Below, piece after piece: positions 3,164 through 34,238 of a stretch of DNA of 37,242 nt (position 1 is the stretch's first letter; each line of letters starts with the position of its first letter). The stretch lies in UHGV virus genome UHGV-1405961; one strand, 5' to 3'. This stretch comes from a virus. Both the position numbers and the translations under genes were made by a program. The notes under the pieces are model-generated. The model made no database searches and was not told the DNA's origin. It was given only the letters and a program-made list of their open reading frames with translations.

Positions 3164-3231
3164 GTCAATATTTCCTAATCCGATTTGTTGATACCGAAGC
3201 CCTGACTGTTCCCGCAGTTGGGGCTTCAACT

Positions 3232-4613: not shown

Positions 4614-6773
4614 TTACTCCTGTGCTATTCCGCTTAGCGACGCTACAATGCCAGCCCTCGCTAAGCGATTGAACTCTTCGTTTCCAACTGCATCACGTAT
4701 TGCTTTTACGGCGGCTTTATTTGCCATAAATCTGCGTTCCGCCGCCGCTAATGCTTCTTTACTTCCGCCAGCTCTTACTGCTTTCGTGGCTTCCTGAACT
4801 GCTTTCTCTATCGCATATCGACCGCTACGCGTGGTGGCAATTTTAGATACAGCACCTTTTAACCCGGCGCCAACTAAAGCACCTACGGCCGCGCCTGCAA
4901 TGCCCCCACCTGCTCCACCAACAATGGCACCCGACGTTGAGTTTGCAATTGCATTTAATACTGTTGAGGTAACGTTGGATAAACCAGCGTCAAGATCACG
5001 TAGAACATTGGCTGTTCTCCCTGTTCTTTCAATATACTGCTGAGGCTTCACTGCCGCTCTTGCAAGAGTGCCATATGCATCAGCAATTCTTCCAAGTTCT
5101 GAGGAATATCTGCTAATGGCTTTTACATTTTGTGGGGTAAGTATCCCTGCGATATGGTTAATTCCTGCTGCATCAGATTTGCCACCACGTACACCATGCG
5201 AGATAGCATCCTGCAACATTGATGATATAGCAGGAACACGCTCTGATTCTGGCAGCGCGCGGATCATAGAATGGAATCCAGCAGGACCATTAAGACCTTT
5301 AGCTGACGATGATTGAAGAGATTTTACTCCATTCGTAATCAGTGCATCTGTTGCCAAATCACGCCCAAAAACAGACTCTGCACTCTCTTGTGCGGATAGC
5401 CTCGCTTTAGACAGATCATTAGCTTTTTGCCAGTCATCAAGAAATCCGCCGTTTTCCGCCATTGTGCGCATATCATCAGTAATTGCCCGGCGTATTTCCC
5501 CTGCTCTCCTTGCCGCATTTGCCTCTCCGCTACGCTTATATTTTTGCTCAGCATCAGCAAATTTCGCTCTCCATGCTTTCATGCCATCAAATGTTACTCC
5601 ACCTTGATTGTTTGCCTGAACAAACTGTTTCATTTCAGGAGTAAGCGGTATGCCAGCAGATCGCTCTGCCTGAATAACGGCATTACCATTTAGCATTCTT
5701 GCTTTTTGATTTGGCATTGTTGACCGCACGTCATCCCATGCCGCGCGCTCGGCATCCTTCATCTGATCAAGATTTTGAAGAATCCTTTGTTTTATAGCCG
5801 CACTTTTTTCTGATGCCGTTCCAGATGCGGCCCCAAATTCATCAAGGTTTCGACTTAACTTTGATGATATTTCGTTAAATGCTGCCTGATGGGCATCCTG
5901 AACAATTCCTGGTGTTGATGCCAATGCGCCTTCGGCTTGTGCAATTCCACGACTTCCAGATCGCATTCCTGGTGTTAATGCGTTTATATCAATTCCAGCA
6001 GACTCAGCCGCTTTTGCTACATCTTCGGACACATTAGCGGCCTGACTGGCAATTGACTGACGCCCAGCACCTGACTTTGCCATCCTAGAAACATCATTAG
6101 CAGAATTCAGTGCTGCACCACCAAGAGCCTGTGAAACTCTTGGCGCAATAACGCGCCCGACACCTGAAAGAACGCCTTGAGCACCAATATTGATACCACC
6201 GTTAATGGCAGCATTTTGTGCAAAGTCGCCCTCCTGATTTGCAGCATCAGCAAGAGAACCTGCAATCATGTTTCCTGCGGAACCGATATCTCCAGCGAGC
6301 TTTGCTGTCGCTCCAACAGCTTTTGCCGCTGTGCCAATTGGCAGGAGATACCCACCAATTGTTTCACCGGCTTGTGCGTAAGGGTCTGTCGGTCGATCGA
6401 CAGGGCGATAAACATCATCCAAAACCTTGGGGCCACCAAGCCCCTGACTGATTGCATTAATCAGACTTGCGCCACCCTGCAATACGTCAAATGGTATGTT
6501 TACCAGACCACGACCAGCCTGTTCTGCAATTTGCCCTGCACTTTGACCACCAGTGAGCCAATCGCCAGCTTGTTGCATCAATGATGGTTCTTCTTTCTGC
6601 TGCTGAGGCGGAGGGTATGCTGCATAAAACTGATCTCTTGCTTCAGCCCATTTGTCACCAGCCTTAGGGGCAACAACCTCATCAAAATATTGCGCTTGAG
6701 CCTGTGCTTTCTGTTCTTCAGTTAACGCCTGATACTGTGGAGAGGCGATAACATCTTTCCATGCTTTAGCCAT
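4614..6773 (-). CDS. DNA ejection (internal virion) protein, P22 gp16-like
   Basis: 719-aa Ala/Gly/Gln-rich ORF, last of the gp7/gp20/gp16 trio by synteny; start overlaps the upstream stop. Confidence 0.65.
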
Positions 6774-27319: not shown

Positions 27320-27458
27320 GACCTTTCTCCTTCTGCATCAGCTTCACTTTTTCCAACTCAGCCCGGAATCGACCAGGCTGCTTGAAGCTGGACAGGAAGC
27401 GATCACGTAGTATGTGTTTGTGAATTTTGTCCTGGTAAGGACTGAGTGGTTTTGTCAT
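27312..27458 (-). CDS. Hypothetical small basic protein (48 aa) between cII and O
   Basis: Not in the supplied track (<60 aa). Translated by me: [53 protein letters not shown] 4 nt upstream; ATG overlaps the upstream stop (TAATG) and its stop overlaps the O-like start. Confidence 0.45.
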
Positions 27459-29334: not shown

Positions 29335-29631
29335 ATGTTTATACCAGGTATAGTGGTCGCTGTTGTAATCATCTGCTTCATATGGGCAAAGTTATCTCCT
29401 GTAAGCTCTAAGCATACAGCTGAACTCATGAAGAAGAAGCATCTTATACATGAGGCAGAAACGATAATTAAGAAGTTCAAAGGCATGTCATATGACGACA
29501 TGTCATCAGATCAGATTGCTATATATAAATGCGCCATTGAGCGTCTTGACTACTTAAACGGACTCAAACCCAAACACACCCCGGTAGAATCAAAATTGCC
29601 GCAATGGCCAAGCAATCCAAATAGCTTCTGA
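29335..29631 (+). CDS. Hypothetical small membrane protein co-transcribed with cI (rex-slot moron)
   Basis: 98 aa from ATG 29335 (track ORF starts at TTG 29317); N-terminal TM helix MFIPGIVVAVVIICFIWAKL; AT-rich; followed 12 nt later by a strong terminator. Confidence 0.55.
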   Translation: MFIPGIVVAVVIICFIWAKLSPVSSKHTAELMKKKHLIHEAETIIKKFKGMSYDDMSSDQIAIYKCAIERLDYLNGLKPKHTPVESKLPQWPSNPNSF

Positions 29632-29642
29632 CATCTCCTTTC

Positions 29643-29667
29643 AGCCCGCAAAGCGGGCTTTTTTATA
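29643..29667 (+). terminator. Rho-independent terminator ending the cI operon
   Basis: AGCCCGCAAAGCGGGCT followed by TTTTTTAT. Confidence 0.75.
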
Positions 29668-29683
29668 TCAATCCAAAAAATTA

Positions 29684-29770
29684 ATTACCTGAAAATTCAA
29701 ACAGGTAAACTCTCACACCAATTTTATTTACCTGCAGGTATAGACAACAGTTTTACCTGTAGGTATATTT
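29684..29770 (+). promoter_or_regulatory. OL operators and pL promoter
   Basis: Operator copies TTTACCTGCAGGTATA (29727-29742) and TTTACCTGTAGGTATA (29752-29767) plus a split site at ~29686-29710; pL -35 TAGACA (29741-29746), 17-bp spacer, -10 TATATT (29764-29769). Confidence 0.65.
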
Positions 29771-29809
29771 TAAGCCATCAGCAGGACGCACTAACCACCA
29801 TGAAGGTGA

Positions 29810-29840
29810 TGCTCTTAAAAATTTAGCCCTGAAGAAGGGC
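29810..29840 (+). promoter_or_regulatory. nutL (boxA-like GCTCTTAA, boxB GCCCTGAAGAAGGGC)
   Basis: The string TGAAGGTGATGCTCTTAAAAATTTAGCCCTGAAGAAGGGCAGC matches lambda nutL as recalled. Confidence 0.8.
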
Positions 29841-30108
29841 AGCATTCAAAGCAGAAGGCTTTGGGGTGTGGTGAAGCCAGCTAGTCACTGGCAAGTGCTT
29901 ACCTACTGTTGAGCGGTGAAGCGCTCCCAACGCTAGCAATAGCGTGGACGAGATGGGGAGCCGCGGGCGATAAGGCCGCCATAACGCGCACGTTGTCGCA
30001 TGGAAAAATCGCTGGGGTGCCGGTTATACCCCTCCGAATGAGACTCAACAAGCTGGAGCTAGACTACCAGCCACCACACCACCAAAGCTAACTGACAGGA
30101 GAATCCAG

Positions 30109-30435
30109 ATGGATGCACAAACACGCCGCCGCGAACGTCGCGCAGAGAAACAGGCTCAATGGAAAGCAGCAAATCCCCTGTTGGTTGGGGTAAGCGCAAA
30201 ACCAGTTAACCGCCCTATTCTCTCGCTGAATCGCAAACCGAAATCACGAGTAGAAAGCGCACTGAATCCGATAGACCTTACGGTGCTGGCTGAATACCAC
30301 GAACAGATTGAAAGCAACCTGCAACGTATTGAGCGCAAGAATCAGCGCACATGGTACAGCAAGCCACGCAGTGAAATGGGTGTGACTTGTGTTGGTCGCC
30401 AGAAAATGAAATTAGGCAGCAAACCACTTATTTGA
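30109..30435 (+). CDS. N: Antitermination protein N
   Basis: 108 aa, MDAQTRRRERRAEKQAQWKAANPLLVGVSAKPVNRPILSLNRKPKSRVESALNPIDLTVLAEYH.QIESNLQRIERKNQRTWYSKP, recalled as lambda N (Arg-rich boxB-binding motif); AGGAG Shine-Dalgarno. Confidence 0.9.
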   Translation: MDAQTRRRERRAEKQAQWKAANPLLVGVSAKPVNRPILSLNRKPKSRVESALNPIDLTVLAEYHEQIESNLQRIERKNQRTWYSKPRSEMGVTCVGRQKMKLGSKPLI

Positions 30436-30443
30436 GGTGAGAT

Positions 30444-30767
30444 ATGGAAGCATTAGTAGTAGAGCGAAGCGAGGATGGCTACTGGACGCACCCAGAATAC
30501 GCCAACCTGTTTGGGGATAGAGAGGCAATTTCAGCTGATGAGTTCAGATCTTTCTGCAAGCAGCATGGCATTGAATCATCAATTGTTGAAATGGAAAACG
30601 ACAACAATCAAACGGTAATTGACGCGTATTTTGAAGATGGGAATCCAAACATCAGTGGATGGGAGCCAAGCATGCCAGATGGAGAAGGATGGTTTGTCGG
30701 TTCGATTCACGATACAGAAGACGGTCCGATCTGCGTTTGGTTCAGGAATGTAGATAAGGCCGCATAG
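30444..30767 (+). CDS. Hypothetical acidic protein (early-left operon)
   Basis: 107-aa ORF with GAGGTGA Shine-Dalgarno immediately after N. Confidence 0.5.
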   Translation: MEALVVERSEDGYWTHPEYANLFGDREAISADEFRSFCKQHGIESSIVEMENDNNQTVIDAYFEDGNPNISGWEPSMPDGEGWFVGSIHDTEDGPICVWFRNVDKAA

Positions 30768-30804
30768 TCGGCCTTTATTTTGGGCATAAACAACAGAGGT
30801 GAAT

Positions 30805-31092
30805 ATGAAAGAGTTTAAGGGTACGCCTGGTAAATGGAAGTACACGGTTAGAAACGTCAACGAGATGATGACTACGTTCCATGGTGTGACGATTGGTGAC
30901 ACATACATTGAAGCAGCAACAAGAAATGAAAGGGAGGATGCGCTACTGATAGCGGCAGCACCTGACCTTCTCGAAGCACTTCAGTTATTACTTAAGCAAA
31001 CCAAAAATAGAACAACGACAACATATCCAGAATGGTATGAAGCTGTTAATAAAGGTCTTGCAGCAATCAGAAAAGCTCTTGGGGATAAGTAA
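30805..31092 (+). CDS. Hypothetical protein (early-left operon)
   Basis: 95 aa from ATG 30805, 5 nt after AGAGGTGA; the track ORF begins at an upstream GTG (30799). Confidence 0.5.
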   Translation: MKEFKGTPGKWKYTVRNVNEMMTTFHGVTIGDTYIEAATRNEREDALLIAAAPDLLEALQLLLKQTKNRTTTTYPEWYEAVNKGLAAIRKALGDK

Positions 31093-31280
31093 TGAAAGTA
31101 AAAATAACTGCTTCTAATACCAGTTTTGTTAGTGTTGGTGATATTACAGAAGTAATAACAAACCATGATGGAACACAAGTTATGTGGTCTGATTTTTGTA
31201 AAAGATATGAGCGAGTCACTTGGTGTAAACTCGTATGGGGAGTCGAATACGAAGAATTACCTGAAATGCATGACGAATAA
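31092..31280 (+). CDS. Hypothetical protein, AT-rich
   Basis: 62-aa ORF whose ATG overlaps the upstream stop (TAATG). Confidence 0.4.
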   Translation: MKVKITASNTSFVSVGDITEVITNHDGTQVMWSDFCKRYERVTWCKLVWGVEYEELPEMHDE

Positions 31281-31375
31281 GCACTGTGTATTCATTCCAA
31301 CGAGTGAATACACGGAGCAATGTCGCTCGTAACTAAACAGGAGCCGACTTGTTCTGATTATTGGAAATCTTCTTT

Positions 31376-31402
31376 GCCCTCCAGTGTGAGGGCAATTTTT
31401 TT
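31376..31402 (+). terminator. Rho-independent terminator inside the pL operon (tL-like, N-antiterminated)
   Basis: GCCCTCCAGTGTGAGGGC followed by AATTTTTTT, immediately before the GGAGG Shine-Dalgarno of the next gene. Confidence 0.65.
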
Positions 31403-31414
31403 GACGGAGGATAT

Positions 31415-32383
31415 ATGAGTGAAGTAACAGATTTAGTTGTTATTGAAAAAGCAAATGCAATGACTGTATTTCAGTCTGCCGACCAGATTGAAGAAATTCT
31501 CCAAAAGGTTGAACGTGAAGTTATGTCCTTTGTGCCTGATATCACAACGGCAAAGGGCAGAAAGGAGATCGCTTCTCTGGCGTATAAAGTTGCGCAGACG
31601 AAAACATATCTCGATGGTCTTGGCAAAGACCTTGTTGCTGAACTGAAGGAAATTCCAAAGCTAATTGATGCTAACCGCAAGACAGTGCGTGATCGCCTTG
31701 ATGAACTGAAAGCCAAGGCGCGCCAGCCTCTTACTGATTATGAGGAGGAACAGGCACGGATTAAAGCCGAAGAAGAAGCTAAGTCAGCAGCTGAAGCTCT
31801 CGCAAAGCAAATTGAGTCTGACCATGAAATAGCGATTTTGATGGATCGCGAATTTGACCGCCAAAGAGAAGAGGCAAGACTCAAAGCGGAGCAGGAAAAG
31901 CGAGAGCATGAAGAACGCTTAAAAAGAGAAGCTGAAGAGAAAGCCAGAGCTGAAGCCGAAGCAAAGGCAAAAGCCGAAATTGAAGCAGCAGCAAGGCGAG
32001 AAGCAGAAGCTAAGGCCGCAGCGGAACGTGCAGAGCGTGAACGCATTGAAGCCGAGCAACGAGCACAGCGCGAAGCAAAAGAGGCAGCAGAACGAGCTGA
32101 AAGAGAAAAGCAGGCAGCAATTGAAGCAGAACGCAGAAAAGCACAGGAGGAGGCTGAACGAATCCGGCGCGAGGCTGAAGCAAAAGAGCAAGCCAGAATA
32201 GCAGAAGAAAAAAGAATCAAGGAAGAAGAAGAGCGTAGAGCAAAGGATAAAGCTCACCGGAAAGAAGTAAATAACAAAATACTTGCTGACCTTATCAAGG
32301 TTGGCGCATCAGAAGATGTTGCTAAAAATATCATAACAGCCATCGTAAAAGGCGAAGTATTCGCAACAAAAATAACCTACTAA
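31415..32383 (+). CDS. Hypothetical coiled-coil protein with a long Glu/Ala/Arg/Lys-rich low-complexity region
   Basis: 322 aa from ATG 31415 (GGAGG 5 nt upstream); globular N-terminal ~100 aa, then ~180 aa of EAKAKAEIEAAARREAEAKAAAERAERERIEAEQRAQREAKE-type repeats. Confidence 0.6.
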   Translation: MSEVTDLVVIEKANAMTVFQSADQIEEILQKVEREVMSFVPDITTAKGRKEIASLAYKVAQTKTYLDGLGKDLVAELKEIPKLIDANRKTVRDRLDELKAKARQPLTDYEEEQARIKAEEEAKSAAEALAKQIESDHEIAILMDREFDRQREEARLKAEQEKREHEERLKREAEEKARAEAEAKAKAEIEAAARREAEAKAAAERAERERIEAEQRAQREAKEAAERAEREKQAAIEAERRKAQEEAERIRREAEAKEQARIAEEKRIKEEEERRAKDKAHRKEVNNKILADLIKVGASEDVAKNIITAIVKGEVFATKITY

Positions 32384-32407
32384 TAAAACCAACATAAGGA
32401 ACCACCC

Positions 32408-32539
32408 ATGATTTACGCAATCGCGGGAGGCGCTCGCATGGGTGCCTTCCAATTAAATGAATCTTTACTTGAACGAATCACCCGTAAATTACGTGACGGA
32501 TGGAAAAGAGTTGAGGCCTTATTATGCGCAATGAAATAG
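32408..32539 (+). CDS. cIII: CIII (protects CII by inhibiting FtsH)
   Basis: 43-aa ORF absent from the track (<60 aa): MIYAIAGGARMGAFQLNESLLERITRKLRDGWKRVEALLCAMK. The core ESLLERITRKLRDGWKR matches lambda CIII as recalled; AAGGAA Shine-Dalgarno. Confidence 0.6.
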   Translation: MIYAIAGGARMGAFQLNESLLERITRKLRDGWKRVEALLCAMK

Positions 32540-32676
32540 CCATCAATCACCAGATGCTTCGTGCAGCACAGAACAAAGCAGTAATAGCCAGATTTATTGG
32601 TGATTCAAAAATGTGGATTGAAGCAAATAAAGCGATGAAATCAGCTATCAACCTTCCGTGGTATCGCAGGAAATGA
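32524..32676 (+). CDS. kil: Kil-like small protein (position of lambda kil)
   Basis: 50-aa ORF, MRNEIAINHQMLRAAQNKAVIARFIGDSKMWIEANKAMKSAINLPWYRRK, immediately after cIII and overlapping its 3' end. Assigned by position and size; the sequence is not verified. Confidence 0.35.
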   Translation: MRNEIAINHQMLRAAQNKAVIARFIGDSKMWIEANKAMKSAINLPWYRRK

Positions 32677-32751
32677 GTTTTACAGATAACTGGTCAGACG
32701 AAGAATTCATTCGTCAGATGAAAGAATTAATCGGTAACGAAGGAGATATTC

Positions 32752-32922
32752 ATGTCACTTGCAACCACAGTGAAGGAGAGCAAGTTACAGAGGCGCATGT
32801 ACACGCAGCAGGCGTTAATGTATCGCCAGAAGGGCGATCGTGAAGGTGTTCGCGTCTTTTTAAATGCGGCAAAGACCGAAGTATTAAATCAGCGTTATTT
32901 CCTTGGTCCATGTCCATTCTGA
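32752..32922 (+). CDS. Hypothetical small protein (56 aa); an alternative overlapping frame exists at 32673-32843
   Basis: MSLATTVKESKLQRRMYTQQALMYRQKGDREGVRVFLNAAKTEVLNQRYFLGPCPF, GGAG 7 nt upstream, stop 10 nt before erf. The competing frame (MSFTDNWSDEEF...) is translationally coupled to kil; both cannot be fully coding. Confidence 0.3.
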   Translation: MSLATTVKESKLQRRMYTQQALMYRQKGDREGVRVFLNAAKTEVLNQRYFLGPCPF

Positions 32923-32932
32923 GAACAATCAT

Positions 32933-33538
32933 ATGAGCAAAGAATTTTACGCAAGACTGGCAGCTATTCAGGAGAATCTGAACGCGCCAAAGAATCAGTA
33001 CAACTCATTCGGCAAATATAAATACAGAAGCTGCGAAGACATTCTTGAAGGCGTTAAGCCGCTACTGAATGGCCTGTTTTTATCAATCAGCGATGAAGTT
33101 GTGTTGATTGGTGATCGGTATTACGTGAAAGCCACGGCAACTATTACCGATGGCGAAAACAGTCATACGGCAACCGCCCTTGCACGAGAGGAAGAAAGCA
33201 AGAAAGGAATGGATTCTGCACAAGTTACGGGAGCTACAAGCTCTTATGCACGCAAGTATTGCCTCAATGGTTTGTTCGGCATTGATGATGCGAAAGATGC
33301 AGATACAGACGAGCATAAACATCAGCAGAACGCAGCAGCAAAGCAATCAAAACCATCACCTACACCTGAACAGGTTCTAAAAGCATTCACTGACGCAGCA
33401 ATGCAGAAAAACACCGTAGAAGAGCTTAAACAGGCGTTCGCCAAAGCGTGGAAGATGCTCGAAGGCACACCGGAGCAGCACAAAGCGCAGGACGTTTACA
33501 ACATCAGACGAGACGAATTAGAAGGAGCGGCTGCTTAA
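32933..33538 (+). CDS. erf: ERF-family single-strand annealing recombinase
   Basis: 201 aa from ATG 32933; N-terminal region KNQYNSFGKYKYRSCEDILEGVKPLL fits the ERF annealing domain; coupled (TAATG) to the SSB gene. Confidence 0.65.
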   Translation: MSKEFYARLAAIQENLNAPKNQYNSFGKYKYRSCEDILEGVKPLLNGLFLSISDEVVLIGDRYYVKATATITDGENSHTATALAREEESKKGMDSAQVTGATSSYARKYCLNGLFGIDDAKDADTDEHKHQQNAAAKQSKPSPTPEQVLKAFTDAAMQKNTVEELKQAFAKAWKMLEGTPEQHKAQDVYNIRRDELEGAAA

Positions 33539-33941: not shown

Positions 33942-34238
33942 ATGCCAGCGCCTCTGTATGGTGCGGATGACCCGCGCCGCTGTTCCGGCAAATCCGTATC
34001 GGAGGTGCTGGATAAATTCAGAAAAAACTACGACCTGATAATGTCGCTACCGCAGGAAACGAAAGAGGAAAAGGAATTTCGCCACTGTATATGGCTTGCA
34101 GAGAAAGAAGAACGCGAGCGAATTTACCAGACATCAATCCGACCATTCCGCAAAGCCACATATACCCACTTCCCTGAATATATCGACCCGCGCCTGCGTA
34201 ATTACCGCTCACGCTATGGCGCTATCAGTAATGACTGA
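33942..34238 (+). CDS. Hypothetical protein (possibly Abc/anti-RecBCD-like; unverified)
   Basis: 98-aa ORF with AAGGA Shine-Dalgarno directly after ssb. Confidence 0.5.
   Translation: MPAPLYGADDPRRCSGKSVSEVLDKFRKNYDLIMSLPQETKEEKEFRHCIWLAEKEERERIYQTSIRPFRKATYTHFPEYIDPRLRNYRSRYGAISND

Follow-up and report, generated by a model that had tools for sequence, protein, structure and literature searches.

Genes and features of the locus

The sequence analysed in this work (hereafter the window) is the whole stretch of 37,242 nucleotides of the virus genome UHGV-1405961, and the features of the region under study are collected in Table 1. Since a lambda-type antiterminator N gene is encoded on the + strand, this strand is read in the direction of transcription from pL. 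After the N gene there are three small ORFs, the last of which stops at 31280. The TAA stop codon of the 62-aa ORF (31278-31280) adjoins the base of the hairpin described below, and between this stop and the next ATG (31415) there are 134 nt. At the other end of the window, a match to sar RNA (Rfam, 71.6 bits) at 3165-3231 indicates a P22-type immI/ant region and, hence, a P22-like phage.

The original prediction placed a 9-bp-stem inverted repeat with a 10-nt spacer at 31286-31313, just 5' of an internal terminator of the pL operon at 31376-31402, within a non-coding gap of about 130 bp. The repeat was found in the sequence exactly as described, with the spacer TTCCAACGAG between its arms, and so was its position in the operon, the terminator being the homologue of lambda tL2a. 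The limits given for the terminator were nearly exact, as its stem covers 31374-31395 and the T-run extends to 31402. In Sf6 this element carries the label 'terminator, homology to phage lambda; tL2A'. The term non-coding did not stand, because the gap holds the gene of an sRNA. A further terminator-like hairpin was observed at 30756-30785, after a 107-aa ORF (AAGGCCGCATAGTCGGCCTT and then TATTTTGGGC). A motif resembling it, GGCCTTTATTTTTGG, is located upstream of the lambda hairpin and is maybe another shared boundary or terminator element.

Table 1. Features of the pL operon region, in window coordinates
Feature	Position	Strand	Basis or remarks
Lambda-type antiterminator N gene, MDAQTRRRERRAEKQAQW...	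30109..30435	+	PHROG 271, N-like, E 8.7e-27
62-aa ORF, pL operon	31092..31280	+	PHROG 10407, E 1.5e-45, function unknown
Full RNA hairpin	31281..31318	+	Repeat finder, folding, in-register conservation over four stem families
Lower stem GCAC/GAGC, four positions		+	Fold; G-C, C-G, A.A (conserved mismatch), C-G
13-pair helix of the hairpin	5' arm 31285-31297, 3' arm 31302-31314	+	Fold
5' arm of perfect 9-bp inverted repeat, GTGTATTCA	31286..31294	+	Sequence read
Stem top and loop	31295..31304	+	U31295.G31304, U31296-A31303; C31297-G31302 closes the CAAC loop
CAAC loop	31298-31301	+	Fold
3' arm of perfect 9-bp inverted repeat, TGAATACAC	31305..31313	+	Sequence read
Homologue of lambda sRNA PreS/LPR1, ~88 nt	31315..31402	+	Identity to lambda ral-ea10 gap; clone start GAGCAATGTCGCTCG
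PreS seed core TGTTCTGATTATTGGAAA, the 18 nt deleted in the published lpr1 seed deletion	31350..31367	+	Primers P970, P971
Intrinsic terminator, lambda tL2a homologue; doubles as PreS 3' hairpin and U-tail	31374..31402	+	Terminator scan
Next operon gene, Sf6 gene 33 homologue ('TolA' in some records)	31415..32383	+	ORF list, homology

The intergenic region and the sRNA PreS/LPR1

From 31281 to 31402 the window is identical to the ral-ea10 intergenic region of lambda and to Sf6, the three-way alignment covering 31281-31395. With respect to lambda the identity is 100% from the hairpin base to the terminator stem, and hairpin, sRNA and terminator follow each other in the same order. Mapped by alignment, the hairpin corresponds to lambda 34,008-34,045 and the 5' end of PreS to about 34,011. 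The neighbours are different: in lambda they are ral and ea10, while here the 62-aa ORF is found upstream and the homologue of Sf6 gene 33 downstream.

Judged by this identity, the gap contains a homologue of the Hfq-dependent sRNA PreS/LPR1 together with tL2a. In lambda, PreS/LPR1 is an Hfq-bound RNA of ~88 nt located between ea10 and ral, whose 3' end is tL2a; it is present only in lytic growth and absent in lysogens, and is processed to ~68 nt (bioRxiv 10.1101/2024.10.31.621285). It activates the translation of dnaN, its targets being dnaN and alaS (Silverman et al., bioRxiv 10.1101/2024.10.31.621285), and in this way it raises host DnaN and aids lytic replication. These are lambda data, and from the sequence identity we infer a similar Hfq-bound RNA of ~88/68 nt during the lytic growth of the phage analysed here.

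The LPR1 clones and the T7 template of the lambda study start at GAGCAATGTCGCTCG / GAGCAATG (primers P810, P1103 and P969, Table S5; bioRxiv 10.1101/2024.10.31.621285). The published clone start GAGCAATG maps to position 31315 of the window, and the homology arm used for the full deletion ends in ...GAATACACG, that is, at 31314. By homology, the 5' end of PreS would thus be at 31315, separated by one base from the 9-bp repeat, a position accurate to a few nt as it was taken from cloning primers and from the ~88-nt northern band. The 9-bp repeat ends at 31313, so that the hairpin lies immediately on the 5' border of the sRNA, and the lower-stem GAGC (31315-31318) corresponds to the first four bases of PreS. 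The remaining parts of the module are also present, namely the seed TGTTCTGATTATTGGAAA at 31350-31367 and the terminator with its U-tail at 31374-31402.

The ~68-nt form, judging from its size alone, would start near 31335. In the predicted fold of the 88-nt RNA, the 5' GAGCAA (31315-31320) pairs with UUGUUC (31350-31355), overlapping the start of the seed. In this model, the seed would become accessible once the RNA is trimmed to ~68 nt, a sign that PreS may be activated by processing.

The + strand promoter scan did not show any sigma-70-like site in 30000-32500, the surroundings of 31315 included. A sigma-70 promoter for PreS is considered unlikely, as the scan was negative, the would-be -10 is the variable 3' arm of the hairpin, with completely different sequences in the different families, and PreS is absent in lysogens. 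Taken together, these three points indicate that the 5' end of PreS most likely derives from processing of the pL transcript at the hairpin foot. The preprint and its supplements (bioRxiv 10.1101/2024.10.31.621285) do not mention the hairpin, a promoter or an RNase for the 5' end, and the supplementary tables are without coordinates for read starts at the hairpin.

Other assignments for this region were discarded. The EHEC anti-sRNAs AgvB/AsxR are located in the late region downstream of PR', so they were rejected as the identity of the RNA, and the sRNA of the Pas preprint is unrelated to PreS. A 32-aa ORF (31320-31418, ATG at 31320) spans PreS and the terminator; it is probably no gene, since its ATG is ATA in the Salmonella-type homologues.

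The inverted repeat is part of a stable RNA hairpin

Perfect 9-bp repeats with spacers of 3-20 nt gave 11 k-mer matches at 8 loci of the window (3.1 +/- 2.2 in shuffles), and a perfect 9-bp inverted repeat is by itself within chance expectation. The repeat finder lengthened the arms to 17 nt (31281-31297 and 31302-31318), which at the DNA level are 82% complementary; of their three mismatches, two are U.G wobbles in RNA. The resulting RNA hairpin (31281-31318) has 38 nt, with 16 pairs, a single A.A mismatch and a CAAC loop. Its predicted dG is -21.7 kcal/mol (z of -8.55 against dinucleotide shuffles), a stability that 0/200 shuffles equalled, and the identical hairpin was predicted inside a context of 136 nt. 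When 24,802 windows of 42 nt, taken from both strands, were compared (mean energy -6.5, sd 3.3), the hairpin ranked 5th, and its energy is, therefore, unusual within the window. Further very stable 42-nt hairpins, of -20 to -25 kcal/mol, are located at 157-198, 4627-4668, 27352-27393 (- strand), 29725-29766 (+ strand) and 32410-32451 (+ strand).

As regards termination, the A/U-rich stem runs into GGAGCAAUG, without a U-run, and the terminator scan did not call the hairpin on either strand. For these reasons the reading as an intrinsic terminator was rejected, as had been anticipated in the original prediction from the missing U-run. The search of the whole window against Rfam 15 at the gathering score gave the sar RNA as its sole match, with no family for the hairpin or for PreS. 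At E values up to 10, the segment 31200-31480 gave nothing credible, the weak matches to RyhB and STnc280 being terminator-like noise.

Conservation of the pairing among related phages

The module is widespread, with at least 95% identity in 325 phage records that include lambda, HK and mEp phages and Stx converting phages. The segment 31275-31405, used as query, was covered to at least 80% in 318 of 385 phage records, and among the matches listed most start at 31281, upstream of which the genes are typically unrelated among phages. In a minority of phages the match to the window begins only at 31315; when aligned, these phages show another inverted repeat at the same place. Directly 5' of the hairpin, the motif (C)GAATAA (31270-31280, and the equivalent positions in loci L003-L006) is kept despite the different upstream genes; as a result, many unrelated upstream ORFs end with Glu-stop at the hairpin base. 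A ribosome terminating at this Glu-stop would cover the 5' arm of the hairpin.

From IMG/VR, GenBank phages and genomes, 219 loci with the conserved PreS 5' motif were gathered. Each of these PreS-type loci carries a hairpin at this place, and the 41 distinct upstream sequences fold without exception (41/41). The stems belong to four families that share one register, without indels outside the loop: family A (the window, lambda and Sf6), family B (mEp043, L, Oslo and P22), family C (SEN22) and family D (IMG/VR contigs). The repeat is, therefore, conserved in relatives as a pairing and not as a sequence.

An alignment of 30 distinct sequences (A3), with gaps only in the loop, was used for the analysis of covariation; its column n corresponds to window position 31280+n. 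With the 17-pair structure, 89.5% of the cells are paired by standard pairs, a share that falls to 21-50% if the 3' partner is displaced by 1-3 columns. In each of eight successive pairs (columns 6-13 with 26-33) both partners have changed and the pairing is maintained. The covariation score is 0.491, while slid partners reach at most 0.115 and shuffles at most 0.141, so that 0/500 shuffles attained the observed value. It should be noted that the four stem families behind this score represent only few independent evolutionary events. The same helix was found independently by RNAalifold. A coding explanation for the variation was rejected, as the changes are pairwise and not codon-like.

Besides the pairs, certain irregularities are conserved in A3. 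The A.A mismatch at 3:36 is present in 28/30 sequences, the position 5:34 is a mismatch or a wobble, and the C-G pair at 4:35 (C31284-G31315) is kept in 29/30. The stem is invariant at its top, with A-U followed by U.G (15:24, U31295.G31304, 27/30) and U-A (16:23, U31296-A31303, 30/30). Rare variants of the lower stem were observed in rows A6, A12 and D3. In two family-A variants (GCTCC..., ...ACAGTGC), A.A and U.G became Watson-Crick pairs, giving a perfect 17-bp stem of -26 to -28 kcal/mol, and in one family-D variant both sides of a pair are changed to give A.A.

The + strand fold is more stable than the - strand fold in the four families (4/4), because the conserved U.G pairs become C.A on the - strand. 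These observations favour a structure that belongs to the pL transcript, and not to the DNA or to an antisense RNA. The covarying pairs, together with this strand asymmetry of the U.G pairs, argue for a structure formed by the RNA and against a DNA site recognised by its sequence.

Over 29500-33500 the window is closest to mEp043 (98.5%), in which a family B hairpin is joined to a window-type PreS exactly at 31314/31315. This joint indicates that the hairpin behaves as an autonomous cassette, with no need of a matching PreS sequence. In P22 a diverged copy of PreS, of the longer Salmonella type, was observed between orf87 and gene 17. The scan of genome contigs added no hairpin family to the four; most of its matches were due to chance or to lambda contamination of unrelated assemblies. 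Exact copies of lambda ral-ea10 were seen on short, low-coverage contigs of assemblies such as those of Pseudoxanthomonas, Shewanella, Pseudomonas, Kitasatospora and Arthrobacter (loci L133, L142, L146, L150, L162, L171, L177, L183, L188, L192, L193 and L204, among others), and their presence in unrelated bacterial assemblies is most likely due to contamination or spike-in.

Comparison with RNase III substrates

An RNase III-type processing site was one of the two functions suggested in the original prediction. According to the published rules, RNase III requires a helix of at least 11 bp between the cut and the loop; a distal box of 2 bp, UA and then UG, is located beside the loop with the U on the 5' arm, and a proximal box of 4 bp is located beside the cut, with G-C at position 1, A-U/U-A at positions 2 and 4 and A-U at position 3 (PMC1540722). 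In the proximal box, G-C/C-G at positions 2 and 4 are antideterminants of binding and catalysis, and internal loops can limit the enzyme to one strand, leaving a protective 3' hairpin (PMC1540722). Data obtained in vivo indicate, in addition, that a G-C or C-G pair is preferred between the two cuts.

Above the published 5' end, the hairpin has 12 pairs (31286-31297 with 31302-31313) and, in addition, U31285.G31314, in agreement with the required length of the helix. U31296-A31303 and U31295.G31304 form a distal box in the right orientation over the four families, family A having one extra C-G pair between this box and the loop. Counting 11 bp from the distal box, the predicted cut on the 3' arm is between 31315 and 31316, 1 nt off the published 5' end of PreS, and C31284-G31315 sits between the predicted cuts, in accordance with the preference observed in vivo. 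The proximal box of the window and lambda stem departs from the rules, with U-A at positions 1 and 3 and G-C at positions 2 (31288:31311) and 4 (31286:31313). Families B-D fit this box better, as they have U-A or A-U at position 2 and A-U at position 3; their position 4 is U.G. Below the predicted cut the helix has only 3-4 positions, including the A.A mismatch.

The suggestion of an RNase III-type site is thus strengthened circumstantially by the selection at the RNA level in the pL sense, by the 5' end of PreS at the 3' foot and by the match to the distal box and the 11-bp distance, and it is weakened by the G-C pairs at two antideterminant positions of the window stem. On these sequence features RNase III is a plausible leading candidate for the nuclease. 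Neither end-mapping in RNase mutants for this site nor usable work on pL processing around tL2 was found in the literature searched.

Among known systems, RNase III processing signals of the T7 R1.1 type and the minimal substrate uR1.1 (PMC1540722) resemble the hairpin in several details. Both kinds of hairpin belong to a polycistronic early phage transcript, have 11-12 bp from the predicted cut to the loop and a UA/UG doublet beside the loop, and are irregular (A.A, mismatch or wobble) where the cut is predicted. If cut on one side only, both would leave the upstream RNA with a hairpin at its 3' end. Unlike T7 R1.1, the stem of the window has G-C at positions 2 and 4 of the proximal box and a very short lower stem, and its cleavage is only predicted. 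In the lambda pL transcript, RNase III is known to act at the N leader and at sib, whose hairpins are much longer and whose sequences are different. DicF of the Qin prophage, likewise different in sequence, is reportedly an sRNA cut from an operon transcript (Faubladier et al. 1990). By their description, the N leader, sib and DicF offer earlier examples of RNase III at work on the early-left transcripts of lambdoid phages.

Proposed role of the hairpin and alternative explanations

In our best reading, the site is a hairpin that bounds the PreS sRNA module on its 5' side and serves in its processing, with a structure that is real and selected at the RNA level. It is probably a signal for the processing or stability of RNA and not a site for the binding of a protein, so that the interpretation in the original prediction is partly supported. 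We propose tentatively, and with slightly more doubt than confidence, that the repeat is the core of a stem-loop of the pL transcript that acts as a processing signal, defining the 5' end of PreS and capping the upstream mRNA. The stem-loop would form in the pL transcript between the upstream stop codon and PreS/LPR1, and an endonuclease would cut at its 3' foot, at about 31314-31316. The best candidate would be RNase III, with a cut on the 3' side in the style of T7 R1.1, directed by the U-A/U.G distal box near the loop. Such a cut would release the 5' end of a PreS precursor of ~88 nt ending at tL2a, which would later be trimmed to ~68 nt, and the upstream message would retain the hairpin as its 3' cap. 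The structure, its covarying conservation, its strand and its fixed register to PreS were observed directly, as was the homology that places the 5' end of PreS; we infer from them the cut in this phage, its nuclease and the protection of the upstream mRNA.

A more elaborate version of this proposal appears possible but rather improbable to us. The hairpin would be an exchangeable RNase III 'gate' needed to free PreS from the N-antiterminated pL transcript, the 5'-monophosphate end would license a trimming by RNase E that frees the seed, and the cut would stabilise the N-proximal mRNA. If this RNase III gate were true, a single structure would link the output of the sRNA to the dosage of the early genes in lambda, P22, Sf6 and Stx phages.

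The main rival of the processing signal is a structural role in the pL transcript, in which the hairpin would act as a barrier to 3'-to-5' exonucleases and/or as an insulator of PreS folding, the 5' end being produced by another enzyme such as RNase E. This role is conceivable, although we consider it rather unlikely. The covariation and the strand data apply to it equally, and the G-C pairs at positions 2 and 4 of the proximal box disfavour an efficient cut by RNase III in the window stem. RNase E prefers A/U-rich single strands, and the processing from 88 to 68 nt falls in a single-stranded A/U-rich stretch typical of this enzyme. The published 5' end, between CACG and GAGCAAU, is unlike the preference of RNase E, whose motif, in the work of Chao and co-workers of 2017, is reportedly an A/U-rich single strand with U at +2. 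In favour of the structural role, 3' hairpins shield processed RNAs from exonucleases (PMC1540722). A simple barrier leaves unexplained the invariant U-A/U.G doublet, the conserved A.A mismatch and the irregularities of position 5.

The stretch could also act at the DNA level only, as a 'boundary sequence' for the recombination that exchanges modules among lambdoid phages, without any function as RNA. The concept of boundary sequences reportedly comes from the HK620 and Sf6 genome papers. Sf6 labels exactly this stretch 'bsq4; boundary sequence' (AF547987); the annotated 113 bp start at the hairpin base, run into tL2A and are identical to the window. In that annotation bsq4 is a recombination landmark, while here the same stretch is an sRNA gene with a covarying RNA hairpin. 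The similarity that starts at 31281 in most of the phage matches listed, with unrelated genes upstream, and the mosaic joint with mEp043 at 31314/31315 are in line with a boundary. Recombination, however, needs sequence identity, yet the sequence of the stem varies while the pairing stays, and the conserved U.G pairs would turn into C.A on the opposite strand, while in DNA they would amount to G.T mismatches. We therefore regard an exclusive role in DNA as quite doubtful, whereas the roles as mosaic boundary and as RNA element are mutually compatible.

It is very improbable that the hairpin is a weak intrinsic terminator of antisense (- strand) transcription: the conserved GAATAA would be read as UUAUUC after the - strand hairpin, TTATTC follows it in most contexts and the - strand RNA still folds with -10 to -15 kcal/mol, but this fold is weaker in all four families (U.G to C.A), the scan did not call it and there is no known or predicted - strand promoter downstream that would need a stop here. 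A palindromic DNA site for a dimeric regulator, in line with the protein-binding site offered as the second function in the original prediction, is the least credible reading and is already largely refuted by the replacement of its half-sites: the perfect 9-bp half-sites have dyad symmetry, but relatives carry three unrelated sequences in their place (ATAGCAGA, AATGCGGA and AATGACCA) and keep the pairing, the half-site shows no excess over the window (12 matches with at most 1 mismatch, 8.1 expected), and the location is inside a transcription unit, far from any promoter.

Implications for lambdoid phages

The sequence in lambda, the boundary annotation in Sf6 and, since 2024, the adjacent sRNA were already known. 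No account of the hairpin as a covarying RNA element that borders PreS on its 5' side and has RNase III-like features was found in the searchable literature. Processing and stabilising hairpins are well known in operon transcripts of phages, and in this sense the present finding is a useful detail for phage RNA biology and no new principle. With the processing and boundary hairpin as the best reading of the site, a classic 'boundary sequence' of lambdoid mosaicism is reinterpreted as a functional RNA module. A hairpin at the 5' border of PreS is common to lambda, P22, Sf6 and Shiga-toxin phages, and, as the way in which PreS leaves the long pL transcript is unexplained in the preprint, this border hairpin provides a concrete candidate for the excision step.
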